A stretch of DNA of 12,205 nt from Promethearchaeati archaeon (GCA_013166835.1 JABLTI010000120.1:1-12205); one strand, 5' to 3'. Numbered from the stretch's first letter, positions 1-12,205 are shown. The notes: generated from the letters alone by a model not told the origin. A program made the numbers and translations.

Positions 1-786
1 ACATTCTTTGGATTAGTTGATGATAATCTCACAAGTCAATTAGCACCAATTAGGAATATGATTCGTACTAAAGAAGATGGATTCAATCAAGTAACGACTA
101 CATGTTCAATGTGCTATAACACTCTTAAAAGAGCGAATATGCTTTTCAAAAACGATGAAGAAAAAGCAATGAGATTAAACGCTTTTATGTACGAAGAAGA
201 AGACTATGCAGGTGATGTAGAGGTTCTACATTTAATTGATATCATAAAGGATAAAATTGGTATCGAAAAATTAAGAGGAAAAATTGTTAATCCATTAAAA
301 GGACTAAAAATCGCTCCTTACTACGGTTGTACACTATTACGTCCAACTGAAGTTTCAGTGGATGAAAACACCGAAAAACCAACAATTATATCTGATTTGA
401 TTTTCGCTCTTGGTGCTGAAGCTGTGGAAGACCCCTATATGACTGAATGTTGCGGTTCTTACTTAACTGTAAAAGATAAACATCTAGTCGCTGATCGAAC
501 AAACAAAATACTCGGATCAATGACAAGAAAAGATATTGACCTCGTAATGGTATCTTGTCCATTATGTCAATTTAACTTGGATGCGCGCCAAAAAGAAGCT
601 AAAGAACTTAATCCCTCTTTCAAAGAGGTACCGATTGTTTATTTCACACAATTAATGGCTTTAGCATTAGGCAAAGATCCAAAGGAACTGGGTTTTGGAG
701 AACATAAAATTGATCCTACTCCCGTTTTAAAGAAACGGAAGTTATTGGGAACAGCTCAGAAAGTTCCCGTGAAAGCAAAGAATTAA
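1..786 (+). CDS. hdrB: Heterodisulfide reductase subunit B-like CCG-domain protein (5'-truncated; frame is open from base 1)
   Basis: Frame 1 has no stop from base 1 (TFFGLVDDNLTSQLAPIRNM...). CCG-domain motifs are TCSMCYNTLK, YYGC, ECCGS and SCPLCQFNLD, with PIVYFTQLMALALG at the end, as in HdrB. Confidence 0.85.
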   Translation, partial: TFFGLVDDNLTSQLAPIRNMIRTKEDGFNQVTTTCSMCYNTLKRANMLFKNDEEKAMRLNAFMYEEEDYAGDVEVLHLIDIIKDKIGIEKLRGKIVNPLKGLKIAPYYGCTLLRPTEVSVDENTEKPTIISDLIFALGAEAVEDPYMTECCGSYLTVKDKHLVADRTNKILGSMTRKDIDLVMVSCPLCQFNLDARQKEAKELNPSFKEVPIVYFTQLMALALGKDPKELGFGEHKIDPTPVLKKRKLLGTAQKVPVKAKN

Positions 787-796
787 GGTGGCAGAT

Positions 797-1489
797 ATGG
801 CAACCGAAATAAAACATGAAATGGTAAAAATAATTGTTGCAAACACAGAATTTGAGGTTCCGTCAAATCTAACGATAATGAAAGCCCTCGAGTATCTCGG
901 TTGGAGATTAGAGCGTGGAGTTGGTTGTCGTGGAGGTTTCTGTGGAGCCTGCAGTACAATCTATAGGTTACAAGGTGATCATAAACTCTACACAGGCTTA
1001 GCTTGTGCAACGAAAGTTGAAAATGGAATGTTGATCGCTCAAGTACCAATTAATCCTGCAAACAAGAAACAATACAACATTGAAGCATTAAAAGCTGAAC
1101 CAAGCACAATACTCGAATTCTATCCAGAAATTGCTCGATGTATATCCTGTAATACCTGCACAAAAGCATGCCCAATGGATATAGAAGTTATGGATTATGT
1201 CCAAGCGGCATTAAGAGGAGATATTGCTGATGCAGCTGAATTAAGTTTTGATTGCATTATGTGTGGCTTATGTGCAACAAGATGCCCAGCAGAAATTTCA
1301 CAATTTAATGTTGGTATTCTTGCACGAAGATTGAATGGGAGATACATTGTGCTAAAATACCAGCAAATGGATAAACGAGTAAAGGAAGTTGAAAAAGGCA
1401 CTTATGACGCAGAAATCGATAAAATGATGAAAGCAGACAAGAACGCTATAGCCAAACTCTACAATGCGAGAGTGAGGGAGGAAGACTAA
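797..1489 (+). CDS. Iron-sulfur subunit (SdhB/FrdB-like): N-terminal [2Fe-2S] domain plus two [4Fe-4S] motifs
   Basis: GCRGGFCGAC...LAC is the 2Fe-2S motif; CISCNTCTKACP and CIMCGLCATRCP are two CxxCxxCxxxCP motifs. ATG 797 is preferred over GTG 788 because AGGTGG at 786-791 is an SD for it. Confidence 0.88.
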   Translation: MATEIKHEMVKIIVANTEFEVPSNLTIMKALEYLGWRLERGVGCRGGFCGACSTIYRLQGDHKLYTGLACATKVENGMLIAQVPINPANKKQYNIEALKAEPSTILEFYPEIARCISCNTCTKACPMDIEVMDYVQAALRGDIADAAELSFDCIMCGLCATRCPAEISQFNVGILARRLNGRYIVLKYQQMDKRVKEVEKGTYDAEIDKMMKADKNAIAKLYNARVREED

Positions 1490-1510
1490 GAGGAACTGAG
1501 GTGCAAGAAA

Positions 1511-3163
1511 ATGACAGTAGATCCTTATCCAGATTATATGCGTGCATCAATTGAGAAAGTAGAAAAGACTCGAGATAAACGAGCAAAAGAAACCATAGAT
1601 CATTGTTCACCAGATGAAATAACAGATGTGTTGGAAAACTTCCATCCTGATTTCATTAAAGAACAAAAAACCAAACTACGGTTTGGAGTATCTAAAGGTG
1701 AAGTTGTTCCTCTTGAAGTTGCGAAAATTGTAGAAACAAAATCAATTCTAGATCCCAAAGCAATTGACTTGAATAAAGTCGATTTTGATGTTGATATTCT
1801 AATTGTTGGTGGCGGTGGTGCTGGTGCTAATGCTGCCTTATGGGCTATGAAAAGTGGTGTGAAACCAGAGAATATCCTAATTGTTACTAAACTAAGAATG
1901 GGAGATTCAAACACTACTATGGCTCAAGGTGGTATACAAGCAGCAGTAAGAAAAGTAGACAATCCAGCTATCCATTATTTAGATGCTTACGGTGGCGGTC
2001 ATTATGAAAATGATCCACCACTAGTTAAAAGACTAGTTAGAGATGCTCCACTCATTTTGAAATGGTACGAAGAATTAGGAATGATGTTTGACAAATTCGA
2101 CGATGGAACAATGGATGCAATTCATGGAGGAGGTACCTCCAGAAAGAGAATGCATTTCGGCAGGGACTTCACAGGTTTGGAAATAATGCGTACACTTCGT
2201 GATGAAGTCTTCAATAATAACATCAAAGTCATTGAATTCTCTCCAGCTGTTGAATTAATAAAAGATGAAACTGGTCAAGTTGCTGGTGCAGTTTTACTAA
2301 ATCTTGACAGTAAAGAATACATTACTGTAAAGGCAAAGGCAACTATTGTCACGACTGGTGGTTTTGGTCGTCTACACATTCAAGGATTTCCAACAACAAA
2401 CCATTATGGTGCTACTTTTGATGGTTGCATCATGGGTTACCGTGCTGGTGCTCCCTTGAAATTAATGAAATCAGTTCAATATCACCCAACTGGTGCTGCA
2501 TTTCCAGAGCAAATTGTTGGTTTGCTTGTAACCGAAAAGGTTCGAGGAAAAGGTGCCCAAGTTCTAAACAAAGATGGTGAACAATTCTGCTTCCCATTGG
2601 AAACTCGTGATGTTGAAGCGAGTTTACTCATTCGCGAGTGTCTTGGTAAGAAAAAGGGTTTAGTTACACCAACAGGTCAACATGGTCTTTGGTTAGACTC
2701 ACCTTTAATTGATGTCCTTCATGGTGAAGGTACCATAGAGAAGAACTTCGCAGCAATGGTGAAACAATTCGGAAGATTCGGTGTTGATATTGTACAAGAT
2801 CCTATGTTAATTTATCCAACACTCCACTACCAAAATGGTGGTTTAGCAATCAACGAATTCGCAGAAACAAAGATAAAGAACCTTTATGCTGCAGGTGAAG
2901 TTTGTGGTGGAACACATGGAAGTAACCGATTAATGGGTAACAGTTTACTAGAAATTAGTGTCTTCGGTCGAATTGCCGGTATAACTGCCGCAAAGAAAGT
3001 TGATAAAGTCAAACTAGGAAAACTAACACTCTCTCATGTCGACCAATACAATGCTCTCTGTGTTGAACACAAAGTCAAGAACCCACCATCTCCAATAATC
3101 TTCCCAGATTACACAGAAGCAAAACACAAAGGTAGAATCCTACCAACTGATTTCTTAGTATAA
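1511..3163 (+). CDS. Fumarate reductase/succinate dehydrogenase-family flavoprotein (FAD_binding_2) with an N-terminal extension; probably non-covalent FAD
   Basis: Motifs ILIVGGGGAG, TTMAQGGIQAA, VTTGGFG, QYHPTG, LVTEKVRGKG, ETRDV, PTLHYQNGG, LYAAGEV and GSNRLMGNSLLE. SD GAGGTG at 1498-1503. Confidence 0.92.
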   Translation: MTVDPYPDYMRASIEKVEKTRDKRAKETIDHCSPDEITDVLENFHPDFIKEQKTKLRFGVSKGEVVPLEVAKIVETKSILDPKAIDLNKVDFDVDILIVGGGGAGANAALWAMKSGVKPENILIVTKLRMGDSNTTMAQGGIQAAVRKVDNPAIHYLDAYGGGHYENDPPLVKRLVRDAPLILKWYEELGMMFDKFDDGTMDAIHGGGTSRKRMHFGRDFTGLEIMRTLRDEVFNNNIKVIEFSPAVELIKDETGQVAGAVLLNLDSKEYITVKAKATIVTTGGFGRLHIQGFPTTNHYGATFDGCIMGYRAGAPLKLMKSVQYHPTGAAFPEQIVGLLVTEKVRGKGAQVLNKDGEQFCFPLETRDVEASLLIRECLGKKKGLVTPTGQHGLWLDSPLIDVLHGEGTIEKNFAAMVKQFGRFGVDIVQDPMLIYPTLHYQNGGLAINEFAETKIKNLYAAGEVCGGTHGSNRLMGNSLLEISVFGRIAGITAAKKVDKVKLGKLTLSHVDQYNALCVEHKVKNPPSPIIFPDYTEAKHKGRILPTDFLV

Positions 3164-3167
3164 AATT

Positions 3168-3205
3168 GAAGGAATTTATTCCTTCTTCTTATTTCTTTTT
3201 ATTTT
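3168..3205 (+). terminator. Hairpin plus T-rich tract ending the hdrB/Fe-S/flavoprotein operon
   Basis: GAAGGAA-TTTA-TTCCTTC (3168-3185) lies just after the TAA at 3163 and is followed by TTCTTATTTCTTTTTATTTT. Confidence 0.6.
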
Positions 3206-3264
3206 ATAATTTAACACGAAATGTTATTTTAAGTACATCTCCATAATTCATTTGGCGATACTTC

Positions 3265-4455
3265 ATGAAGTACGATACAATAATAATTGGTGCGGGGGTT
3301 ATAGGAGCAAGTACAGCATACCACTTGAAACGTTTATCTCCGAAAAAGAAAATATTACTCATTGATAAAAATAACAAAGTTGCCGTCGGAAATACCGCTA
3401 AAAGTGCTGCTTTATACAGGAATCTTTTTTCGTCTAGAACAAGTCAGGTTTTGGCTAATAGCTCAATAAGTTACTATGAAAGTATCGCAGATAAAATCAG
3501 CTTGAAAGAACTTGGTTATTTTTGGATGCTATCTCAAGATGATTATCAAAAAGCAAAGACCGGATTAAGTAAGCTTGATGAAAAAAAGGACCGATTTGAA
3601 TTTTTGTCTGTTAAAGAAATACCTACAAATCTCAAGCTTAATACTTCAAAATCTGATGAATTTAGTGAAGTCGAATGCATTCTATATGGTCATCGTTGTG
3701 GTTCTCTCTCTGCAATAAAGCTAGCTAGATACTATGCCACACAATTTCAGAAGTTAGGTGGAGTAATACAGGTTCCTGCAAAAATTAAAAAAATAAATTT
3801 AACAGAAAAAAATCGATTTTACCCTCCTTGGTCCGATGTAAAAATTGATTCAATAACTGATCACAATGGAGTAGATTACTTTGCTGATGATTTCATTTTC
3901 GCCCTAGGTGCATGGACCCACTCTTTCTTATCTCAATATGGAATAGCTTCCCAAATATATCCTCAAAAACGTCAGATGTTTACATTAAAGATTAAGCCAG
4001 ACCAGATCGCTACTGATATTAAGCAGAGAATTCCAATTCTTGTTCTTCCAACTGGTGGTGTATACATTAAACCAGTCCTTCAAAACAGTATGGTAATGGT
4101 CGGTAGTGCCAATGAGCTAGGGAATCCATTTCAAATGGATGCCAATCCTCCAACTGCAGAAGAAGGTTATTTCAAAAATGCCATTGAGCCCGTTTTGAAT
4201 CATTATTTTCCGCACTTAAAAGATTATAGCATTTTCTCTAAATGGGCTGGTTATTATGCCTACTATTGGCCAGATAAAAATCCGGTTATAGAAAAAATTT
4301 CCAATATTCAATGGGTGAGTGGAACATCTGGTTCAGGTACAGCTGCAAGAAACCTATCTATGGATGAAGTAGAATTATTCGATGAAACCAAGTTTCAGGT
4401 AGCTGATTTATCATTGAAGAAAAGGAATGTAGATGCTGAAGAGCTAATAATCTAA
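3265..4455 (+). CDS. FAD-dependent oxidoreductase, DAO/glycine-D-amino-acid-oxidase family; possible in-frame deletion near the C-terminus
   Basis: Motifs YDTIIIGAGVIGASTAYHL, GNTAKSAA, FALGAWT, WAGYYAYYWPDKNPVI and SGTSGSG. Its stop overlaps the convergent TPR gene by 4 bp. Confidence 0.85.
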   Translation: MKYDTIIIGAGVIGASTAYHLKRLSPKKKILLIDKNNKVAVGNTAKSAALYRNLFSSRTSQVLANSSISYYESIADKISLKELGYFWMLSQDDYQKAKTGLSKLDEKKDRFEFLSVKEIPTNLKLNTSKSDEFSEVECILYGHRCGSLSAIKLARYYATQFQKLGGVIQVPAKIKKINLTEKNRFYPPWSDVKIDSITDHNGVDYFADDFIFALGAWTHSFLSQYGIASQIYPQKRQMFTLKIKPDQIATDIKQRIPILVLPTGGVYIKPVLQNSMVMVGSANELGNPFQMDANPPTAEEGYFKNAIEPVLNHYFPHLKDYSIFSKWAGYYAYYWPDKNPVIEKISNIQWVSGTSGSGTAARNLSMDEVELFDETKFQVADLSLKKRNVDAEELII

Positions 4456-6287
4456 TCTTGTTTGATAAATTCATAATATTTCCTTATGAATTCATCCCAG
4501 TGATCTATACGAGCAATTAATTCACCTTGTTGTCGAGTGATTTTTTCTGCAAGTTTAATTAAACCTTCTTCATCCGCCATATCACGAGCCTGTACCAAGA
4601 GTTTTTTCGCTTTTTGTATATCAATTTCGACAATTGAAAATTGAGCTTTTAACCAAAGTGTTAGTAGACGAATATTATTCGCTTCAATCTTGAGATTGTA
4701 GGCGTTTTGCTTCTTAGCTATCACTGTCAATGTTTCAGTGTAATTCTCTAGCTCGAGTAAAACTTCAGTGTCACCAGAAATACTGAATTCATTAATTAGT
4801 AACTCGCACAGATTAATCATAGCAAAAACTGTGAGAGTATGATTAAGTATCTCATCTTTAACCACTATTTCTAGAATCTCAATTGCTTTAATCCATTTTT
4901 TAGGCCTAGAACTGGCTTTTAGAATCAGAGCTTTTCCTACTTCAAGTGTTTGATTAAAATATCGGCTCTCATTTTCCCGAGTAATTTTGTCAAGTTTCTC
5001 CAAATAATTCTTAGCTAAATTAATATCTCCCTTATCAACTGATATAGTTATTAAAAGTAGTAATGTATCTATGAGATGATGAGTTACCTCCATTTTTGTT
5101 TGAACTCTCAAACTCTTTTGGGCATGATCCAATGCAAGGTTAAAATCTCCCTTTGCATGATAGATTTTCCCTAGAAGCTGTTGAGCTAAACCTATGGAAT
5201 AATTCTGAGAGCTCAAAGGTAAATTCTCAAGCGCATTCAGCGTTATATCTAATGCTAAATCAATTTTGCCTTGATCAAAATACATTGCAGCTAGGTTAAT
5301 AGAATTTAAATTAGCATGATATTTATCTCCAACTGATTCGTAAACCACAACACATTCTTTCATAAATTTAATAGCATCATCTAATTCCCCTTTTTTCCAA
5401 GCAACTAAAGCATCTTTCCATGATGCTTTTTGGGTAATCCTGAGATTTCTTATGTTACCTCGCATATTCGAGGCTTCTTGGAACAATTCAATCGCTTTAT
5501 CTAATTCCCCAATAAAATAGTGTGTTAATCCAATTCTGTACACTAGCTCATGATAATTTTTATTAATCGATTTTTGGATTTTAATGCCTTCTTCAAAAAC
5601 TTCTAAAGATTTACTATATTTACCAGTCCATTGATAATTAGCACCAATTATAGTATTACACTCTACTTCCGCTGCTTTATGCTCAATTTCTAAAGCAATC
5701 TCTTTCGCTTTAAAAGCAAAATCAATTCCTTGTTCATACTCTTCAGCGTGCATAGCAAGAACAGCTATCCATGTGTAGATATCCATAAGCAATTTCTTTT
5801 CATTTATCTTTTGTGCGAGTTTTTTAGCCTTTGTTAGAACTTCAAATGCTAGGTTTAATTCTGCCAATCTATCAAGATTAATTCCTTTGTAATACAACAA
5901 TGAAATTCTTTGTTTTGTCAGTTCCGCATTTTCCTTTTCTTCTATAATTTCTAATATTTCCTCTGCCTTTTCTATCGTTTCTAAACTTTCTCTGAATAAA
6001 GCTAATTGTTGTTTACATCGAGCTAGATCTATAAGAACTTCTAATTGTAATTCTTGATTATCCGATCCCTTACTCAACTCTAAAGCTTCTTCAACAAATT
6101 CCAGTCTTTTCTCAGGAGGAAATTCCTCTAGATTTCTACTATTCAAAAGCATAATTCTTACCAAAGCTTCTTTTGGTAAATTTCCCCTCTTATTCAATTT
6201 CTCTAATTTATCATGAGCAATTCTGAAATTATGCCAGTCAATATCTTTCTCAATAAGAGAGAGTTCTCTGTTTAATTTATTATCCAA
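4452..6287 (-). CDS. Tetratricopeptide-repeat protein with a conserved helical C-terminal domain (paralogue A)
   Basis: Repeated TPR helices such as IGANYQWTGKYSKSLEVFEEGIKI, IGLTHYFIGELDKAIELFQEA and LGKIYHAKGDFNLALDHAQKSL. TTG start with SD GAGGGG at 6298-6293. Confidence 0.88.
   Translation of the reverse strand: MDNKLNRELSLIEKDIDWHNFRIAHDKLEKLNKRGNLPKEALVRIMLLNSRNLEEFPPEKRLEFVEEALELSKGSDNQELQLEVLIDLARCKQQLALFRESLETIEKAEEILEIIEEKENAELTKQRISLLYYKGINLDRLAELNLAFEVLTKAKKLAQKINEKKLLMDIYTWIAVLAMHAEEYEQGIDFAFKAKEIALEIEHKAAEVECNTIIGANYQWTGKYSKSLEVFEEGIKIQKSINKNYHELVYRIGLTHYFIGELDKAIELFQEASNMRGNIRNLRITQKASWKDALVAWKKGELDDAIKFMKECVVVYESVGDKYHANLNSINLAAMYFDQGKIDLALDITLNALENLPLSSQNYSIGLAQQLLGKIYHAKGDFNLALDHAQKSLRVQTKMEVTHHLIDTLLLLITISVDKGDINLAKNYLEKLDKITRENESRYFNQTLEVGKALILKASSRPKKWIKAIEILEIVVKDEILNHTLTVFAMINLCELLINEFSISGDTEVLLELENYTETLTVIAKKQNAYNLKIEANNIRLLTLWLKAQFSIVEIDIQKAKKLLVQARDMADEEGLIKLAEKITRQQGELIARIDHWDEFIRKYYEFIKQD
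4468..4492. repeat. 9-bp inverted repeat AATTCATAA-N7-TTATGAATT inside the last codons of TPR gene A
   Basis: AATTCATAA at 4468-4476, loop TATTTCC, TTATGAATT at 4484-4492. The same arms occur at 6439-6463. Confidence 0.7.
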
Positions 6288-6425
6288 TAAAACCCCTCAT
6301 AGAAGCCACAATAACTTAAATTGATTAACATACAATTTTTATAACTATTAATTTTTTTGAAAAAAAGTTCTTATTATTTAATCTGCTTTCTTCTTTTCTT
6401 CACAATTTCTCGATTTAGGGGAATT

Positions 6426-8234
6426 TCAGCTTCTTATAAATTCATAATACTTTCTTATGAATTCATCCCAATTTTCAAATTTTTCAAGCATTTTATCATA
6501 TTGAGTTGTTATTTTAGATGCTAATTTTATCAAACCATGTGAATTAGCTAATTCTCGTGCTTCTTGTAGCAACCTTCGAGCATTTTGTATATTGATATCC
6601 AGCTTTGAATGTTGAGCTTGTAACCATAGTGAAATAATGCGAATGTGATATGCCTCAACTCTTAATGTATAGGAGTTTTGTTTTTGAGCAATATCCAGTA
6701 ATCTGCTGGTATGTGTTTGCAAATCGTTTAATACATCTTCATCACCTGAAATACTGTATTCATTTAGTAAGATTTCACATAAATTAATCAATGCAACAAG
6801 AGTAGTATTATAAGTTGCAATAGGTTCACATACTATTTCTTCCAAAATATCAATGGCTTGTGTCCAATATTTTGGTCTGCCTTTCGATTTTAGAACTAAC
6901 GCATTAGAGAGTTGATAATTTTGTCTAACAATTCTATTATCTGTTTTTGTAGAGAGTTCTTTTAGTTGATTTAGATATGAATCTGTTTCATCAAAACTTT
7001 CTTTTTCTAATAAAAATGTAATAAGAAAACGAAGTGTTTGAGCAATATCTTGTTTATTACCCATTGCCATTCGAAGATCTAAACATATTTGTGCATGAAA
7101 AAGAGCATTTTCATAATCATTTTTCTCGTGGTAAATCTTCATTAAACTAAAATGCGCCCAACCCAAACCATATTTATTTTCGATGTTCCCTAGAATTCTT
7201 AATGCTTCTTTAGCATGTTCTAACGCTTTCTCTAATTCCCCTCGGAAAAAATAAACTGTTGAAATACCAACTTGGCTATAACCAATGGTAGCTAGATGTG
7301 GAAAAACACTCGCAAGTTCAATTGTTTTCTCGTATAATTCCATAGCTTCATCCATTCTTCCAATTCGGGAATTTAAATTTGCTAGAATAAAAGTAACTAT
7401 GAAATTTTTGTCAATATCTTCAGACTCATGGAATTTTTCTAATCCACGTTCAATATATTCTAATCCTTTCTCTAATTCTCCTTCACGCCAATAACTATCA
7501 CCTATACTCGCTATAGCATGAGGGTATTCGCCAGTAATTTTGATTCTTTCTTTAAAACATTCTCTAGTTTTTCTATAATCTCCTATTTCAGCATAAGTTA
7601 CTCCTAGGTTATGCAATAGGTGTGCAACATTAAGCTCATCTCCTAATTCTTTGAAATGTTGTAACGCTTGTTTTTGATATTTAAGACATAAATCATATTC
7701 ACCTAACGTACCAAATCCATTCCCTAACCAATGTAATGTTTGACCTTTAATAACACTAAGTGAATTTTTTTCTGCAAAATCTAGTGATTCTTGAAGCCAT
7801 TTAATTGATTCTTTTGGTTTATAGAGAAAATTGTAGATAAACCCCTTCCAATATAACAGCCAACCTTTATTTTCAATTAATCCTGTCGTTAGTTTTTTTT
7901 CCTTTTCTAATATTTTCTCTCCATGATTAATTACTTTTAATGCTTCTTCTAATTTCCAATTTCCTTGGAATATATTAATTCTCAGGATCAGATTTTCAAG
8001 TACCTTTTCCCAATCTTTATTTTTGGTATATATTTCAATTGCTTGATCAACAATTCTATGAGCTTCATTAAACTTGTTCGAATAGATGAGAATTCGAATT
8101 TTAAAATTAGTGATTTTCTTTTTTTGAGCAGCATTTAATTCATCTTGCTTTTCAATTTCTAAGATAGTATTTAAGCATTCATCATATTTCCTATTCTTAA
8201 ATAACTCAAGTACCTTTTCTAAACCATCATTCAT
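6426..8234 (-). CDS. Tetratricopeptide-repeat protein with a conserved helical C-terminal domain (paralogue B)
   Basis: TPR repeats such as LGNGFGTLGEYDLCLKYQKQAL, LGVTYAEIGDYRKTRECF and IGDSYWREGELEKGLEYIERGL. The C-terminal ~158 aa align without gaps to paralogue A; both carry WDEFIRKYYEFI just before the stop. Confidence 0.88.
   Translation of the reverse strand: MNDGLEKVLELFKNRKYDECLNTILEIEKQDELNAAQKKKITNFKIRILIYSNKFNEAHRIVDQAIEIYTKNKDWEKVLENLILRINIFQGNWKLEEALKVINHGEKILEKEKKLTTGLIENKGWLLYWKGFIYNFLYKPKESIKWLQESLDFAEKNSLSVIKGQTLHWLGNGFGTLGEYDLCLKYQKQALQHFKELGDELNVAHLLHNLGVTYAEIGDYRKTRECFKERIKITGEYPHAIASIGDSYWREGELEKGLEYIERGLEKFHESEDIDKNFIVTFILANLNSRIGRMDEAMELYEKTIELASVFPHLATIGYSQVGISTVYFFRGELEKALEHAKEALRILGNIENKYGLGWAHFSLMKIYHEKNDYENALFHAQICLDLRMAMGNKQDIAQTLRFLITFLLEKESFDETDSYLNQLKELSTKTDNRIVRQNYQLSNALVLKSKGRPKYWTQAIDILEEIVCEPIATYNTTLVALINLCEILLNEYSISGDEDVLNDLQTHTSRLLDIAQKQNSYTLRVEAYHIRIISLWLQAQHSKLDINIQNARRLLQEARELANSHGLIKLASKITTQYDKMLEKFENWDEFIRKYYEFIRS
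6439..6463. repeat. 9-bp inverted repeat AATTCATAA-N7-TTATGAATT inside the last codons of TPR gene B
   Basis: AATTCATAA at 6439-6447, loop TACTTTC, TTATGAATT at 6455-6463. Confidence 0.7.
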
Positions 8235-8383
8235 TTTAACCTAGATCCTGATAAACAATACCCCCGAGCTAGAAATGCCTCTTTTATAATAAAAGTGGAA
8301 ATTCTGCCCCTAGCAATATAACTTATGTTCATTTTTTAATTAAATTTTGCTGACAAAATAAAACAAAAATCGATGAATAATTG

Positions 8384-8986
8384 CTAAGATTTTTTCTTGA
8401 TTTCACCTTTCTTAACTTTCACTTCTTTTTCAAGTTCATCAATTTTACTTTCAAAAATATCTAATTTTACTTTTCGACCATCTAATCTTTCTCGGTTTGC
8501 TAGTTCTGCTTCCATAAGATATAGTAGTGTTTGTTGTTGCATTCTTTCCTCTAAATTTTCAGTATTTTCTTGAATTTGAATGGTAACTTCCTTTATTTTC
8601 TGCAATGAGGAATTTTCTTTAGCAGCCAAATAATTTTTGTTGATAGTGCCCATCACAATGTTTTCCAATATTTCACTAAATGGTGCTTTTTCTTGAATCC
8701 TCTCGCGGAATTCTTCTACAAGTGATTCTAAATCTTGTACTCCCATTAACGCAATTTCACTTGGAGTAATCTTTTTCCAGGAGAACTTGTACACTTCATT
8801 GAAAACACCATCATCAAGAATTTCTTCTAGTGAATCAGATGAAAACATAGTTTGTTTTTCTAGTTTTTTAACTTCCTCTTCTAATACTTGCATTTTCTGT
8901 TTCTTGCGCTCATGATAAGCTTTTTGTCGTTCAGACCTTGTTTCATATTTCCTTGGACGACCTGCTTTTCTTTTTTCTTCTGGCAT
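8384..8986 (-). CDS. Putative DNA-binding regulator: AT-hook, bZIP-like basic helix/short zipper and C-terminal coiled coil
   Basis: KRKAGRPRK is an AT-hook (core GRP). It is followed directly by RQKAYHERKKQKMQVLEEEVKKLEKQ. The gene is divergent from the palindrome-bearing genes. ATG 8986 was chosen; GTG 8995 is the alternative start. Confidence 0.65.
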   Translation of the reverse strand: MPEEKRKAGRPRKYETRSERQKAYHERKKQKMQVLEEEVKKLEKQTMFSSDSLEEILDDGVFNEVYKFSWKKITPSEIALMGVQDLESLVEEFRERIQEKAPFSEILENIVMGTINKNYLAAKENSSLQKIKEVTIQIQENTENLEERMQQQTLLYLMEAELANRERLDGRKVKLDIFESKIDELEKEVKVKKGEIKKKS

Positions 8987-9018
8987 ACTACCCACTCATT
9001 ATAACATCTAACTTAAAT

Positions 9019-9047
9019 CATATAAATATTTTCGTCTTACTACAAAA
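9019..9047 (-). promoter_or_regulatory. Operator box 1 (9030-9047) and adjacent TATA box (TTTATATG, 9026-9019, minus strand) of the putative regulator gene
   Basis: The minus strand reads TTTTGTAGTAAGACGAAA-ATA-TTTATATG, the same box-to-TATA geometry (within 1 bp) as the promoters at 9998 and 10912. Confidence 0.65.
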
Positions 9048-9072
9048 TATTTTTCATTTTTTGAACTCTTTG

Positions 9073-9090
9073 TTTTATCATTCTACAAAA
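9073..9090. promoter_or_regulatory. Operator box 2
   Basis: TTTTATCATTCTACAAAA matches TTTTGT-N6-ACAAAA with one arm mismatch. Confidence 0.6.
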
Positions 9091-9097
9091 CCCTCGG

Positions 9098-9156
9098 CAA
9101 AATACTTAAATATTTATACATCTATATTTGTCCCGAGACAAAAATTCTCTGGGAGG
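9098..9156 (+). promoter_or_regulatory. Promoter of secreted paralogue 1: BRE/TATA (CAAAATA-CTTAAATA), operator box 3 (9126-9143) and SD GGAGG (9152-9156)
   Basis: CAAAATACTTAAATA mirrors CAAAATACTTATATA at 10011-10025. Box 3 is ATTTGTCCCGAGACAAAA. Confidence 0.65.
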
Positions 9157-9165
9157 AGAAGAAAA

Positions 9166-9933
9166 ATTAAGTTAAAACATAAAAAAATAACATTTGTGTT
9201 CTTACTGCTTAGTTTACTCTTGACAACTATGGTTTCAGTTATTTCAGATGATGACGATGATCAAGTAGTTACCATACTAATCTGGTTGGAACATCCGGAA
9301 AAACAAGTAATAATTGATGAAATAATTCGTGCACTTGAAGAATGTGATTTGGAAGTAAATGCATTATATATGCCAACTTTTGAAGAATGGGCGGATTATG
9401 AAGGAGATTTTGATCTCTGGTACGGTGGAATTCAGTCTTTACCAAGAGATGGAGATATTTTCATGTATGCTTTCATTAATTATTTGCTATACGAATTTAT
9501 TATGATGTATGAAGATGCAAAAATCTCCAAAAATGTTGGCAAGCTCTGGGACATGTATTGGGAAGCAATGGATGACCCTGATGTTGTAGATGAAGCATTC
9601 ATAGATGATATGGTTGATGCATTCCAAGACATCGAAGAACGTCTTTGGGAAAAACAATATCTTTCAGTTTTTAACCGATGGTTAGAACCATCTTCATTCG
9701 AATGGGGGGACGTTCCTACAATGAAGACAGAAACACTCGGATACAATTGTTTGCCTGGTTACGTTTTTGCAGACCCTGCATTAAGATTAGAATTAAATGA
9801 GGAAATCGATCGTGATGTCTTTTTAGACTATCATTCATCCTATAATCCCTACAGTACCTATGAGGTTTATCACGCCTTCCAATGGTTGCCGTTCCACGAT
9901 ACTTCTTTACCAAATGAATATCCTGATGCTTGA
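9166..9933 (+). CDS. Secreted acidic protein resembling a circularly permuted domain III of family-5 ABC solute-binding proteins (paralogue 1); probable ATT start
   Basis: SD GGAGG, 9 nt, then ATT, giving the signal peptide IKLKHKKITFVFLLLSLLLTTMVSVIS. Motifs GDFDLWYGG, FQDIEERLWEKQYL and YNCLPGYVFADPALRLELNEEIDRD. The ORF-track start at 8938 runs through promoter DNA and overlaps the divergent gene. Confidence 0.7.
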   Translation: MKLKHKKITFVFLLLSLLLTTMVSVISDDDDDQVVTILIWLEHPEKQVIIDEIIRALEECDLEVNALYMPTFEEWADYEGDFDLWYGGIQSLPRDGDIFMYAFINYLLYEFIMMYEDAKISKNVGKLWDMYWEAMDDPDVVDEAFIDDMVDAFQDIEERLWEKQYLSVFNRWLEPSSFEWGDVPTMKTETLGYNCLPGYVFADPALRLELNEEIDRDVFLDYHSSYNPYSTYEVYHAFQWLPFHDTSLPNEYPDA

Positions 9934-9958
9934 TGAATTTATAACTCAATAATTAGTG

Positions 9959-9990
9959 TCCGGTTTTTAACCGGATCACACCTCTTTTTT
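9959..9990 (+). terminator. Hairpin plus T tract after paralogue 1
   Basis: TCCGGTT-TTT-AACCGGA (9959-9975), followed after a short spacer by TCTTTTTT (9983-9990). Confidence 0.65.
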
Positions 9991-9997
9991 CTAACAT

Positions 9998-10069
9998 TTT
10001 CGTAGAACTACAAAATACTTATATACACTACTAAATATATTTTGTCATGCTACAAAATCCTCTGGGAGG
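9998..10069 (+). promoter_or_regulatory. Promoter of paralogue 2: box 4 (9998-10015), TATA CTTATATA (10018-10025), box 5 (10040-10057) and SD GGAGG (10065-10069)
   Basis: TTTCGTAGAACTACAAAA and TTTTGTCATGCTACAAAA start 42 bp apart and flank the TATA box. Confidence 0.8.
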
Positions 10070-10078
10070 AGAAGAAAG

Positions 10079-10855
10079 ATTAGACTAAAACACAAAAAAA
10101 TAATTTCTTTAATAATACTGATGAGCTTCTTATCCTTACCTTTAGTGGGATCAAATGCATCAAAAGGGCAAGAATACATAGAGGTTGAGTATATTTGGGA
10201 GGGATACTTCCCAATTCCAATTGTGGAAGAGATGCAAGTGCAACTCTTTAAAGATGCCTTTGCAGAAGCTTTGGAATATGGTATCAAATTTACTCTACGA
10301 GCTGAGGGAGATATAGATGCTATTCTCGCTAGCGGAGATTATGACATAGTTAACTATTATCGTCCTAGAATGCCTGGTGATTCCTTTGAGATCCTTTTAT
10401 TTACCCTTGAAGACATGTTTCTCGATGGTTTGATTCAACACCGATGTTCACAACTTGAAAGAAAAATCATAAAACTACAAAGAATATATGATAGTTACAT
10501 CATTGCTGAGGGTGACAAACAGGTTCAACTTGAAGAAAAATTCATTGCAGAATTTCACAAAATTGAGCGAATTCTCTTTGAAAAGCAATTAATCTATGAT
10601 TACTGTTATTTCCCACCACCTGAGGCACCAATGATATTTTGTGACAAAATGAGTGTACTTAATTCAGCAAAAGGTCATGTTTTTTCCAACAATCATTTAC
10701 GTATTGCTATGGCTAATGTTTTCGATCGAGATTTCGTATGTGAAATCGTAAAGGTAGCACTTTCATTTATCGGTTTAGAATCAACTCAGTCCTATCATCT
10801 CTTTGGCTGGTCACAATATCACGACACTACTTTGCTTGAAGGTGTGCCTACATAA
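10079..10855 (+). CDS. Secreted protein resembling a circularly permuted domain III of family-5 ABC solute-binding proteins (paralogue 2); probable ATT start
   Basis: SD GGAGG, 9 nt, then ATT at 10079, in frame with ATG 10121. This gives the signal peptide IRLKHKKIISLIILMSFLSLPLVGSNA. Motifs YGIKFTL, SGDYDIV, FHKIERILFEKQLI and LNSAKGHVFSNNHLRIAMANVFDRD. Confidence 0.7.
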   Translation: MRLKHKKIISLIILMSFLSLPLVGSNASKGQEYIEVEYIWEGYFPIPIVEEMQVQLFKDAFAEALEYGIKFTLRAEGDIDAILASGDYDIVNYYRPRMPGDSFEILLFTLEDMFLDGLIQHRCSQLERKIIKLQRIYDSYIIAEGDKQVQLEEKFIAEFHKIERILFEKQLIYDYCYFPPPEAPMIFCDKMSVLNSAKGHVFSNNHLRIAMANVFDRDFVCEIVKVALSFIGLESTQSYHLFGWSQYHDTTLLEGVPT

Positions 10856-10875
10856 TTCTCAGTTAATTAGTACTT

Positions 10876-10904
10876 AACCGGATTCGCATCCGGTTCCTTT
10901 TTTT
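10876..10904 (+). terminator. Hairpin plus T tract after paralogue 2
   Basis: AACCGGAT-TCGC-ATCCGGTT (10876-10895), then CC and TTTTTTT (10898-10904). Confidence 0.75.
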
Positions 10905-10911
10905 ATCTGAT

Positions 10912-10982
10912 TTTTGTAGAACTACAAAATTCTTATATAGTACTTAAACTATATTTTGTCACACTACAAAATTGTTTGGAGG
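10912..10982 (+). promoter_or_regulatory. Promoter of the DUF4242-like gene: box 6 (10912-10929), TATA CTTATATA (10932-10939), box 7 (10954-10971) and SD GGAGG (10978-10982)
   Basis: TTTTGTAG-AA-CTACAAAA has perfect 8-bp arms; TTTTGTCACACTACAAAA starts 42 bp further on. Confidence 0.8.
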
Positions 10983-10993
10983 AAAAAACAAGT

Positions 10994-11272
10994 ATGGCGA
11001 AATTTTTGGTCGTTCATCCGGTGCCCATACCTGCAACAATAGAGGAAGCAACTCCAATTGGAAAAGCTTTCAAAGGATTGAGTAATAAGGATGCTTATTG
11101 GGTGAAGAGTTGGGCAATATTCGATGAGGAAGGAAAAGTAACAAAAATCTTATGTCAATGGGATGCAAAGGATATGGACTCCGTAAAGAAGCTTACCGAT
11201 AAAGTCGAAGCTATTCCTACTGAGGGAATTTATCCGATGGGCATCTTCCATGGCGAGGATTTCAGAGAATAA
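10994..11272 (+). CDS. Small DUF4242-like protein (dimeric alpha+beta barrel)
   Basis: The pattern MAKFLVVH...YWVKSW...KILCQWDAKDMDSV...IPTEGIYP resembles DUF4242. ATG 10994 follows SD GGAGG; the ORF-track TTG at 10976 overlaps the SD. Confidence 0.6.
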   Translation: MAKFLVVHPVPIPATIEEATPIGKAFKGLSNKDAYWVKSWAIFDEEGKVTKILCQWDAKDMDSVKKLTDKVEAIPTEGIYPMGIFHGEDFRE

Positions 11273-11341
11273 AGGTAGAAAAACAATCCATCAAAAACAT
11301 CTCCGTACGCGGGAAATTCTACCTATTCTCTTTCTTTTTTT
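11264..11341 (+). terminator. Long-loop stem plus T tract after the DUF4242-like gene
   Basis: AGAGAAT(AA)AGGTAGAA at 11264-11280 pairs with TTCTACCT-ATTCTCT at 11317-11331 and is followed by TTCTTTTTTT. Confidence 0.45.
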
Positions 11342-11343
11342 GT

Positions 11344-11361
11344 CTCCGTATGAATACAAAA
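11344..11361. promoter_or_regulatory. Possible degenerate operator box 8 upstream of the membrane protein gene
   Basis: CTCCGTATGAATACAAAA keeps GT-N6-ACAAAA but has lost most of the left T tract. Confidence 0.35.
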
Positions 11362-11404
11362 AGAATATTTAGTATAAGGTTCTAATAATAAACGGGTGTT
11401 GATA

Positions 11405-11842
11405 ATGAATAAAGCATATTATTACAAGTACATGTTCATGGTAGTGGGAATCGGTTATATCTTGGCAGCAGTAATTTTTGGTGTAATTTCTCCTTTGGAA
11501 GATAATTTTATGCATTTCTTTGGATTGGAACAAAATGTGCAGATTTGGCTGTGGCTGTATAGTTATCTGTTAGTGATAATGAGTCTAGGGTTCATGTATT
11601 TCCTCGTAGGATTAGATATTACAAAAAACCACCTAGTGATTTCTGCAGGAATGATTTTTAAAATATCTCAATTTCTATTGTGGCTTATTGTTTATTTGAT
11701 GGGTAATTGCCATTATACTTTACTCATTGTGGGAGCTGTTGATCTTGTATTCGCTGCTTTATTCATAGAGTTCTTTGTTAATTTTAAGAAACTCGATCCT
11801 ACAGATATTGTTTTAGCTTATCCTGTTCGAAAAGATAGCTAG
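11405..11842 (+). CDS. Hypothetical membrane protein with about four TM helices
   Basis: Four hydrophobic stretches: MFMVVGIGYILAAVIFGVI, WLWLYSYLLVIMSLGFMYFLVGL, GMIFKISQFLLWLIVYLMG and LLIVGAVDLVFAALFIEFFV. ATG 11405 follows SD-like GGGTG at 11394-11398. Confidence 0.75.
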   Translation: MNKAYYYKYMFMVVGIGYILAAVIFGVISPLEDNFMHFFGLEQNVQIWLWLYSYLLVIMSLGFMYFLVGLDITKNHLVISAGMIFKISQFLLWLIVYLMGNCHYTLLIVGAVDLVFAALFIEFFVNFKKLDPTDIVLAYPVRKDS

Positions 11843-11977
11843 CAATCCTTCTTTCTTCTTTTATTTACAAACAACAACATTCATTTACTTGAAAGAACAT
11901 TAATTCTCTAGTTTATTGATAGAGTAGTATTTGCATTTGTTAAATTTCCATTACTAAAATGAACGTTGGTGACCAAT

Positions 11978-12205
11978 TTGTCGATTTATGATGACATGCT
12001 TAGTGACGAAGAATACTTGAAAAAGTATGATCTTAAGAGAAATCCTTTTGATAAAATTTCAGCTGAATCCATGACTGCTGATGAAATTACCAATATGCAT
12101 GTAATTACTGCTGCGGACAAGAAGATTGCTTCTAATCTCTCTACTATAATAAATGGTGGTTCAGCTACTGTTGCTCTTATAGGGGAATACGGTTCAGGTA
12201 AATCT
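11978..12205 (+). CDS. P-loop NTPase/AAA+ ATPase, N-terminal fragment (3'-truncated; not in the ORF track)
   Basis: TTG 11978 follows SD GGTGA (11968-11972). The frame is open to the window end: SIYDDMLSDEEYLKKYDLKRNPFD...TVALIGEYGSGKS (Walker A). Confidence 0.8.
   Translation, partial: MSIYDDMLSDEEYLKKYDLKRNPFDKISAESMTADEITNMHVITAADKKIASNLSTIINGGSATVALIGEYGSGKS

Follow-up and report, generated by a model that had tools for sequence, protein, structure and literature searches.

Organization of the locus

The window analyzed here, meaning the whole stretch of DNA, is the complete 12,205-bp contig G000:C42 of a Promethearchaeati archaeon (assembly of 3.56 Mb, 84.75% complete, 33.7% G+C), and it contains a gene for a putative transcription factor, hereafter REG, together with repeated copies of an 18-bp palindromic box. 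REG is divergent from four co-oriented genes on the plus strand, a layout that an earlier sequence-only reading of the same DNA had described as a unit at 8384..11842; the layout stands, but the conserved unit also takes in two tetratricopeptide repeat (TPR) protein genes at 8234-4452, outside the interval delimited at the time. Judged by comparison with related genomes, the locus carries a real, conserved and lineage-restricted putative transcription-factor family with operators that are apparently readable from genomes, and REG is probably a dimeric, sequence-specific transcription factor for boxes placed around the TATA-like elements of the REG gene itself and of three to four facing genes. 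The genes of the unit are:

4452..6287, minus strand: TPR1, a 611-aa protein paralogous to TPR2 and sharing its conserved C-terminal part (...WDEFIRKYYEFI)
6426..8234, minus strand: TPR2, a 602-aa cytoplasmic all-TPR protein directly downstream of REG (Pfam)
8384..8986, minus strand: REG, 200 aa; AT-hook (GRPRK), basic helix, short zipper, helical middle part, long C-terminal helix (open reading frame (ORF), homologues, alignment and AF2 model)
9166..9933, plus strand: gene 1 (SBP1), an exported single-domain protein resembling family-5 solute-binding proteins (SBP), with a predicted ATT start
10079..10855, plus strand: gene 2 (SBP2), a paralogue of gene 1, with a predicted ATT start
10994..11272, plus strand: gene 3, a 92-aa cytoplasmic SCO4226-like protein (formerly DUF4242) without a signal peptide
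11405..11842, plus strand: gene 4, a 145-aa hydrophobic membrane protein

The start of REG was placed at ATG 8986 and not at GTG 8995, the corresponding MPEEK... start being found in 29/29 aligned homologues.

Clustering of the 18-bp boxes

When up to one mismatch is allowed, the pattern TTTTGT-N6-ACAAAA has exactly seven copies in the 12,205 bases of the window (beginning at 9030, 9073, 9126, 9998, 10040, 10912 and 10954), compared with a chance expectation of 0.20 copies (sd 0.43); seven or more copies were found in 0/200 shuffles. The palindrome had been reported to precede the regulator gene and genes 1-3, with a weak copy before gene 4, and to lack a full-length copy in 1-9000, both of which were confirmed with all seven copies falling within 9030-10971. 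Across the 3.56-Mb assembly, 4 exact and 72 one-mismatch sites were detected, 7 of these 76 lying within this 2-kb stretch, and no second tight cluster was apparent among the 76 genome-wide sites. This loose pattern, taken by itself, was about as common as its reversed control (4 vs 2 in the own genome, and similar in 10 congeners); the signal therefore lies in the clustering and in the fuller motif, not in the total count. When the whole genome was scanned with a matrix built from 25 sites of the REG type termed clade A below, five window sites scored 24.7-26.7 bits and the best site elsewhere 17.7 bits, a gap that is large even though the scan is partly circular, 7 of the 25 training sites having come from the window. 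The five best sites of the genome are all in this locus, and the lack of a comparable site elsewhere in the genome speaks for a local regulon.

Two further sequence elements were noted. Four sites elsewhere in the genome (C78:13617, C78:14843, C181:2663 and C185:12741) share TTTTGTnyyCTAAGAAAA, which may be a separate element unrelated to REG. Additionally, a 16-bp perfect palindrome, ATTTTGCTGACAAAAT, lies at 8344-8359, 24 nt past the REG stop codon and between REG and TPR2; it has the arms of the boxes around a center of 4 nt, compared with 8 nt in the boxes, and may represent a variant site or belong to a terminator.

Promoter architecture

The boxes lie beside the promoter elements, which are ordered along the window as follows (SD, Shine-Dalgarno sequence; operator types are defined by REG clade in the next section):

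9020..9029, minus strand: TATA-like element of REG, ATATTTATAT, directly after box 1 in REG orientation (sequence; arrangement conserved in homologues)
9030..9047: box 1, putative own operator of REG, 61 nt before the ATG, TTTTGTAGTAAGACGAAA in REG orientation
9073..9090: box 2, common to the divergent REG and gene 1 promoters
9106..9119, plus strand: TATA-like element of gene 1 (sequence; alignment of 11 upstream regions)
9126..9143: box 3, core GTCCCGAGAC, of the clade F operator type, between the TATA-like element and the SD of gene 1
9151..9158, plus strand: SD GGGAGGAG of gene 1
9956..9990, plus strand: hairpin and T-run 3' of gene 1 (-12.8 kcal/mol, z -3.28)
9998..10015: box 4, abutting the gene 2 TATA-like element on its upstream side
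10018..10025, plus strand: TATA-like element of gene 2, CTTATATA
10040..10057: box 5, 42 bp past box 4 and spanning the start of transcription predicted for gene 2, near 10048
10064..10071, plus strand: SD GGGAGGAG of gene 2
10876..10905, plus strand: hairpin and T-run 3' of gene 2 (z -4.17)
10912..10929: box 6, the most symmetric copy (8/9 pairs), abutting the gene 3 TATA-like element
10932..10939, plus strand: TATA-like element of gene 3, CTTATATA
10954..10971: box 7, 42 bp past box 6
11338..11361: degenerate gene 4 box, TTTTGT-N12-ACAAAA, followed by a TATA-like element at 11364-11377 (sequence; orthologues carry TTTTGTCTCCGTACAAAT)

With a GGAGG also preceding gene 3 (10994), the TATA, SD and terminator previously proposed for each of genes 1-3 could all be located, the hairpin and T-run after gene 3 being weaker than the others (z -1.8). 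Genes 2 and 3 share one arrangement, in which a box is followed by 2 nt, CTTATATA, about 14 nt, a second box, 6 nt and the SD, so that the boxes are 42 bp apart; the first box would cover the position of the transcription factor B (TFB) recognition element (BRE), and the second would cover the usual archaeal start, about 26 nt past the TATA-like element. The divergent region between REG and gene 1 spans 180 bp and holds three boxes, with box 2 lying 43 bp from box 1 and facing both directions, and box 3 is conserved in four related loci (L032, L033, L051 and L069). In a survey of 77 boxes in 286 kb, covering the window plus 30 related loci, 27 neighboring box pairs were found within 120 bp of each other, 17 of them spaced at 42 bp, 4 at 40 bp, 1 at 43 bp and 5 at 53-56 bp. 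At the gene 4 position, a box with one mismatch is present in 3/5 orthologous loci (L031, L051 and L056). A 6-bp insertion in the window's gene 4 box was considered and rejected by alignment, the orthologues being equal in length; the window together with L032 differs there by two substitutions (ACAAAT to ATGAAT).

Box cores follow the regulator clades

A total of 37 REG copies, 34 of them distinct, were collected from the genomes of relatives and from metagenome contigs, representing two genera and independent contigs. Of the 34 distinct copies, 31 carry a box 59-63 nt upstream of the ATG (28 with at most one mismatch and 3 with two), and in all 31 a TATA-like element follows it directly. The copies without a box at this position, two in L046 and one in L047, belong to the most distant clade. 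The regulators fall into clades that differ both in the head of the protein and in the core of the box:

Clade A: head ...ERQKAYH; box core GTAGnnnGAC
Clade B: head DRSRAYY; box core GTrTTATCAC
Clade C: head DRQRAYY; box core GTAACnATAC
Clade D, short forms of 49-77 aa: head ERYKAYY; box core GTGTTAACAC
Clade E, with a 2-residue insert: head ARQKAYY; box core GTATnnnTAC
Clade F, distant, many of about 300 aa: head ERKKAYR; GTCyCGrGAC boxes on both sides of the own TATA-like element

When the box class was mapped on a tree of 32 full-length REG sequences, from which the N-terminal 48 alignment columns had been removed, 4 changes sufficed, which is the minimum, compared with a mean of 18.2 for shuffled labels (0/200 as low). 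Several clades can be present in one genome, each with its own box, as in G078 (clades B, C and D) and G076 (clades A, B and C), which argues that the paralogue, and not the host, sets the box.

The comparison with the cargo genes leads in the same direction. Homologues of the SBP-like genes occur in 12/83 genomes of the class, and in genus g1 all six genomes that have such genes (G000, G074, G075, G076, G078 and G081) have them beside REG and with boxes, including the SBP1 gene next to REG in G078. At the SBP-like loci away from REG, boxes were found in 0/7 cases (L062-L068; six from genus g8 and one from g7), even with 2 mismatches allowed and GT and AC kept. The boxes thus go with REG and not with the cargo genes, and the co-occurrence across relatives that the sequence-only reading had proposed as a check is found, both for the box before REG and for its absence from SBP homologues elsewhere. 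The box-less SBP1-like genes of g8 (L062-L064) share a different conserved upstream stretch, TTAGTTGCAAAATAGTTTTACTATTTAATTTCACGTATATG..., which may be another regulator's site.

One box departs from this scheme. Box 3 at 9126 has the core type of clade F, a paralogue clade different from that of the window's REG, which amends the earlier reading of one palindrome at all genes. The genome's own clade F paralogue lies at G000:C21:12962-13441 (L047:7963-8553), without a TPR neighbor, and its promoter carries TTGTCCCGAGTC, of the core type of box 9126. Because the two cores agree, cross-regulation of gene 1 by two REG paralogues is suggested. About 3.3 kb past the C21 paralogue lies an SBP-like gene with an in-frame TGA (G000:C21:16813-17439). 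A second clade F-type site, at C218:2183, is inside a 537-aa ORF and was taken as a chance occurrence.

In other clades, the divergent neighbors of REG are other small exported proteins, P0156 (197 aa) and P0157 (177 aa), with signal-peptide-like N-termini, and a 402-aa NosD/beta-helix protein (L049:6060-7268).

The REG protein family

A word-indexed search with REG returned 71 homologues at E<=1e-3, 0 of them with a Pfam domain on record, and an exhaustive profile search of 1.84 billion cluster representatives returned only 72 clusters at E<=1e-3. The weakest profile matches share only the N-terminal motif (G-R-P-R-x-Y-x3-A-E-R-Q-x-A-Y-R-E-R-x-K) and lie in short, otherwise unrelated metagenomic proteins, the ten weakest having no database name other than 'hypothetical protein'. 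Where homologues of the window genes carry a taxonomic name, it is mostly Candidatus Heimdallarchaeota or 'Asgard group archaeon', with two in other bins. At E<=1e-5 the family is present in 36/83 genomes of the class, often in several copies and with up to 6 matches per genome; excluding the own genome, it was detected in 8/10 genomes of genus g1, 22/25 of g8, 2/2 of g4 and 3/22 of g16. At E<=1e-8 it was found in 34/400 genomes of the phylum, all from one class, and in 0 of the 317 phylum genomes outside that class.

In an alignment of 29 members, the invariant positions are G9, R10, P11, R20, A23, Y24, R27, K28, K29, L35, E36, W70, T74, E77, I78 and the block Q150...R167. The G-R-P core of an AT-hook is present with basic flanks, R12 being conserved in at least 90% of members. 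REG itself scores 14.9 bits against the AT_hook model of Pfam (cut-off 17.4) and 17.4 bits against bZIP_2 (cut-off 22.3), and among the 29 members sub-threshold matches to AT_hook, bZIP_1 and bZIP_2 (basic leucine zipper) were obtained for 15, 10 and 8, respectively, with a best bZIP E-value of 0.002; the description of the regulator as AT-hook/bZIP-like is consequently retained as a resemblance. Compared with known bZIP chains, the family profile matches 7aw7_D over residues 15-61 (E 1.6e-4), GCN4 (0.08) and Pap1 (0.17). The AF2 model (pLDDT 81) is helical throughout, with residues 17-44 in one helix and residues 128-199 in a 72-residue C-terminal helix that, as modeled, would not stand alone. 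The NCBIfam scan gave no match for REG, for genes 1-4 or for the exported proteins of other clades, and the best ESM Atlas score of REG was 0.83.

Miniature REG ORFs of 49-77 aa, consisting only of the AT-hook, the basic helix and the short zipper, have their own box 60 nt upstream (L035:6357-6485, L037:3483-3355, G076:C72:827-973 and G075:C96:33856-34002). They are often followed by a TPR gene and then by a full-length clade B REG, and could act as competitors or heterodimer partners.

The TPR neighbor

From 36 REG copies (one exact duplicate locus being left out), 11 had too little downstream sequence, and 20 of the 25 testable copies have a gene for a TPR protein of about 600 aa downstream on the same strand, at a gap of about 56-472 nt. 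Among the five exceptions, two show the arrangement mini-REG, TPR, REG, with the TPR gene immediately upstream, and three are of clade F. The TPR proteins match TPR families only (for TPR2, TPR_12 at 3e-31 and TPR_MalT at 2.6e-18), their nearest named models being the sensor parts of AfsR and FimS, and they have a conserved C-terminal part in common. This neighborhood makes the TPR protein a probable partner of REG. In one relative (L031:9000-12802, G075), both TPR orthologues align over their full length and are split into several ORFs, either as broken genes or through assembly errors.

Cargo genes

Genes 1 and 2 are paralogous (26% identity, E 2e-13), and the family of gene 2 has 15 members at E<=1e-3. 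Gene 1 scores 13.5 bits against PF00496 (cut-off 32.4) and gene 2 has no match, while the SBP paralogue of the same genome on C21 reaches 32.3 bits against the same cut-off. Residues 36-109 of gene 1 match positions 282-360 of the profile (E 0.038), and the C-terminal part of the C21 paralogue matches positions 203-281 (E 7.4e-8), giving a permuted segment order. The two-lobed native order of about 500 aa is absent, the products of genes 1 and 2 being 255-258 aa including the signal peptide. For the model of gene 2 (pLDDT 83, pTM 0.79), Foldseek returned no match at E<=0.001, its top rows being periplasmic binding proteins at E 0.014 or weaker, and VIA-align returned only periplasmic-binding-protein folds at middling scores (Z up to 8.2); the family-5 chains 8upi, 5u4o and 4ofj align residues 6-185 of the model with chain positions of about 295-510 (Z 6.7-6.9). 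It is plausible that genes 1 and 2 encode single-lobe, circularly permuted relatives of family-5 SBPs, and the permuted SBP label of the sequence-only reading holds as a resemblance in that the fold is periplasmic-binding-protein-like and the hidden Markov model (HMM) matches come in permuted order. As that reading had remarked, no ABC permease was found in the window or in the orthologous loci examined, and no gene for the transporter ATPase either.

The SBP-like genes adjacent to REG share an unusual start. In the set examined (window 9166-9168 and 10079-10081, with L031-L034, L051, L054 and L056), 18/18 have ATT (13) or ATA (5) as the predicted start, never ATG, 7-10 nt past a GGAGG. Immediately after it, the signal peptide opens with a conserved K/R-L-K-H-K-K that is encoded with synonymous variation (Leu as TTA, CTC, CTA or TTG), and box-less SBP homologues of genus g8 begin at ATG. 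Database entries place the SBP-like starts at a downstream ATG or TTG and thereby truncate the signal peptide.

Gene 3 matches PF14026 over positions 1-74 of 76 (E 1.5e-5, 25.5 bits vs a cut-off of 28.5), and its g8 homologue reaches 21.5 bits, so that the DUF4242-like label, too, is kept as a resemblance. In 6/8 loci gene 3 directly follows gene 2 as an operon without boxes of its own; a separate gene 3 promoter, its TATA-like element flanked on both sides by a box, is present in the window and in L051. Gene 4 belongs to no named family, its ESM Atlas matches being only to unnamed clusters. As a guess, the cargo may capture or sense an extracellular ligand.

Flanking genes

Window positions 1-4455 encode an HdrB-like CCG-domain protein, a 2Fe-2S/4Fe-4S ferredoxin-like protein, a 550-aa FAD_binding_2 flavoprotein and a DAO-family oxidoreductase, and the flavoprotein and DAO genes are syntenic with the REG locus in congeners. 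On the other side, 11966-12205 belongs to a conserved downstream gene, the complete copy of which (L032:9465-10739) encodes a 424-aa P-loop ATPase; its weak matches to AAA_22 and BrxC/D-like models, and those of its winged-helix-like C-terminal part (HVO_A0114, ArsR-like), are all below cut-offs.

Proposed mechanism and alternative explanations

Starting from the directly observed boxes, with their clustering, their place next to TATA-like elements, their conservation and their clade-specific cores, a mechanism can be proposed for REG as a sequence-specific regulator. The invariant GRP AT-hook would occupy the minor groove of the outer T/A tracts, and the GT...AC core would be recognized in the major groove by the basic helix (R-x-x-A-Y-x-x-R-K-K), in the manner of a bZIP basic region; a dimer would form through the short zipper at residues 32-42 together with the C-terminal helix of 70 residues. 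One box would abut or overlap the BRE position and the second, 42 bp or four helical turns further on, would cover the predicted start, so that two boxes on the same helix face would bracket the TATA-like element and, when both are filled, shut out TFB and RNA polymerase. Since occupation of both boxes would block TFB and the polymerase, REG would most likely be a repressor, and repression is slightly preferred here to activation from the upstream box. Through the box at its own BRE and TATA-like element, REG would limit its own level, and the TPR protein may sense a signal and switch REG activity. The autoregulated local regulon that the sequence-only reading had inferred is supported by the comparative evidence, namely the fixed box in the REG promoter, the cores that track the clades, and the boxless SBP genes away from REG.

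The direction of regulation is the part of this mechanism most affected by an alternative, in which REG is an activator that recruits TATA-binding protein (TBP) and TFB from the box abutting the BRE and TATA-like element, giving positive autoregulation, with the downstream box shutting the promoter off at high REG levels. This is possible, and the less probable of the two directions. It would accommodate the REG promoters of most clades, which have only the box upstream of the TATA-like element and so speak against repression, as well as the higher symmetry of the upstream boxes (8/9 pairs for that at 10912); in archaeal TrmBL1, SurR and Ptr2, sites upstream of the TATA box and BRE often go with activation. 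The target promoters and the clade F own promoters, on the other hand, have a second box over the predicted start, a position that typically blocks the polymerase, and the upstream box overlaps the BRE position instead of preceding it.

Several further points weigh against REG as a bZIP-like, TPR-coupled reader of the boxes. The agreement between box class and clade amounts to four or five events, not 32, because relatives share labels, and the matrix scan carries the circularity noted above. All bZIP and AT_hook Pfam matches of the family are below the curated cut-offs, and Foldseek gave no match for the REG model at E<=0.001, the best being the TraM chain 2q0o_D at E 0.36. The basic-region signature of bZIP proteins is N-x2-[AS]-[AQ]-x2-[CSF]-R, and in the HMMER alignment with 7aw7_D its Asn and Arg are not conserved in REG, the Asn column being R/Q/G and the Arg column H/Y; only Q, A, Y/F and E-R-K are common to both. 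The zipper falls short of four or more heptads, helix 17-44 containing about 2.5, with M32, L35, V39 and L42 at a/d positions. Owing to the lost Asn and Arg and the short zipper, REG is described as a bZIP-like head with an AT-hook and is not filed as a bZIP protein. That its N-terminal 50 residues are a true archaeal homologue of the eukaryotic Pap1/Yap-type bZIP domain, preserved in Heimdallarchaeia, is considered improbable. As to the putative TPR partner, its link to REG is one of gene neighborhood, clade F copies are without a TPR neighbor, and a search of proteins of 395-2000 aa turned up no REG-TPR fusion, which is weak evidence.

A different co-inherited factor might in principle recognize the box cores, or the boxes could be a copied promoter cassette; REG would then be an architectural AT-hook or coiled-coil protein that lacks sequence specificity. 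The paralogous genes 1 and 2 have upstream repeats of 41-75 nt in common, REG has no recognized DNA-binding domain above threshold, and one JGI name for a REG homologue is 'polyhydroxyalkanoate synthesis regulator phasin', all of which such an explanation would account for. It is nevertheless unlikely: the same box precedes REG, which is unrelated to the targets, and in other clades precedes genes for unrelated exported proteins; SBP homologues away from REG are boxless; the flanks of the boxes diverge while the boxes persist; and the core tracks the REG clade even inside one genome, a specificity that makes another reader hard to sustain. A still less probable explanation, to which very little weight is given, is that the locus is a mobile element or defense island and that the palindromes are recombination or replication sites, as the patchy, multi-copy distribution of REG (36/83 genomes of the class, up to 6 matches each) and the ATPase gene with a weak BrxC/D-like match following the locus might suggest. 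Synteny with the flavoprotein, DAO and TPR genes is preserved among congeners and on metagenome contigs, the only PADLOC match is a generic TPR model on TPR2, and tblastn of REG residues 1-50 against phage and plasmid records gave no match at E<=0.01, which together make this explanation unlikely. Scans of the window also detected no integrase, no tRNA and no Rfam RNA family, and the boxes are at promoter positions.

Comparison with known systems

The closest structural parallel to the REG head is found in the Pap1/Yap bZIP proteins (7aw7, 1gd2; PF00170, PF07716), in which, as in REG, a basic helix runs straight into a heptad zipper and palindromic DNA sites are used; Q-x-A-[YF]-x-E-R-[KR] of REG aligns with QRAFRERR of 7aw7_D, and the N-terminal extension would point to the outer flanks of the site. 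Beyond the lost signature residues and the zipper of about 2.5 heptads, REG differs in its extra helical middle and long C-terminal helix, its boxes are 18 bp compared with bZIP sites of 8-10 bp, and its N-terminal motif alone also occurs in unrelated short metagenomic proteins. With HMGA-type AT-hooks (PF02178), REG shares the invariant G-R-P with K/R flanks, and the T4/A4 arms of the boxes are AT-hook-type DNA; unlike these, REG has a single hook, below the Pfam cut-off, that is fused to a putative sequence-reading helix.

Among archaeal regulators, TrmB/TrmBL1, SurR, Phr and Ptr2 resemble REG in having palindromes that abut the TATA box or cover the start, autoregulation and a small local regulon, but they have winged-helix or helix-turn-helix (HTH) domains, none of which was found in REG with Pfam or NCBIfam. 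The genetic coupling of a TPR protein to a transcription factor and exported products recalls the RNPP regulators (PlcR, NprR, Rgg, AimR) and, in type III secretion, the TPR chaperones that act as co-activators (IpgC-MxiE, SicA-InvF). In RNPP proteins, the HTH is fused to the TPR and a gene for a short secreted pro-peptide is adjacent, whereas here the TPR proteins and the putative DNA-binding REG, which is without an HTH, are separate, and the exported neighbors are 177-402 aa. The cargo proteins, in turn, resemble OppA, DppA and NikA (PF00496) in fold and in the motif N...F.D..LR...DR, and differ in having about 225 mature residues, or roughly one lobe, a permuted HMM order and no ABC permease nearby.

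Implications

To our knowledge, almost all described archaeal transcription factors use bacterial-type domains such as the helix-turn-helix and ribbon-helix-helix, none of which is present in REG. Judged from titles and abstracts, no description of the REG family was found in the literature on bZIP, AT-hook, leucine zipper and transcription factor proteins in Asgard and other archaea; REG is new as a family and unusual for archaea. If REG binds the boxes, it would represent a new kind of archaeal transcription factor, and its paralogue clades, five or six in number and each having a distinct box core at a common promoter position, would provide a specificity table that is readable from genomes, as well as a simple model for the gating of archaeal promoters from both sides of the TATA box. 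A signaling module is suggested by the conserved association of REG with a large TPR protein and exported-protein genes. The family also makes it testable whether bZIP-like DNA reading predates eukaryotes; if the REG head were a true bZIP homologue, that mode of DNA reading would be older than eukaryotes, and the clade-operator code, the mini versions of 50-77 aa and the TPR partners would display a pre-eukaryotic bZIP network.

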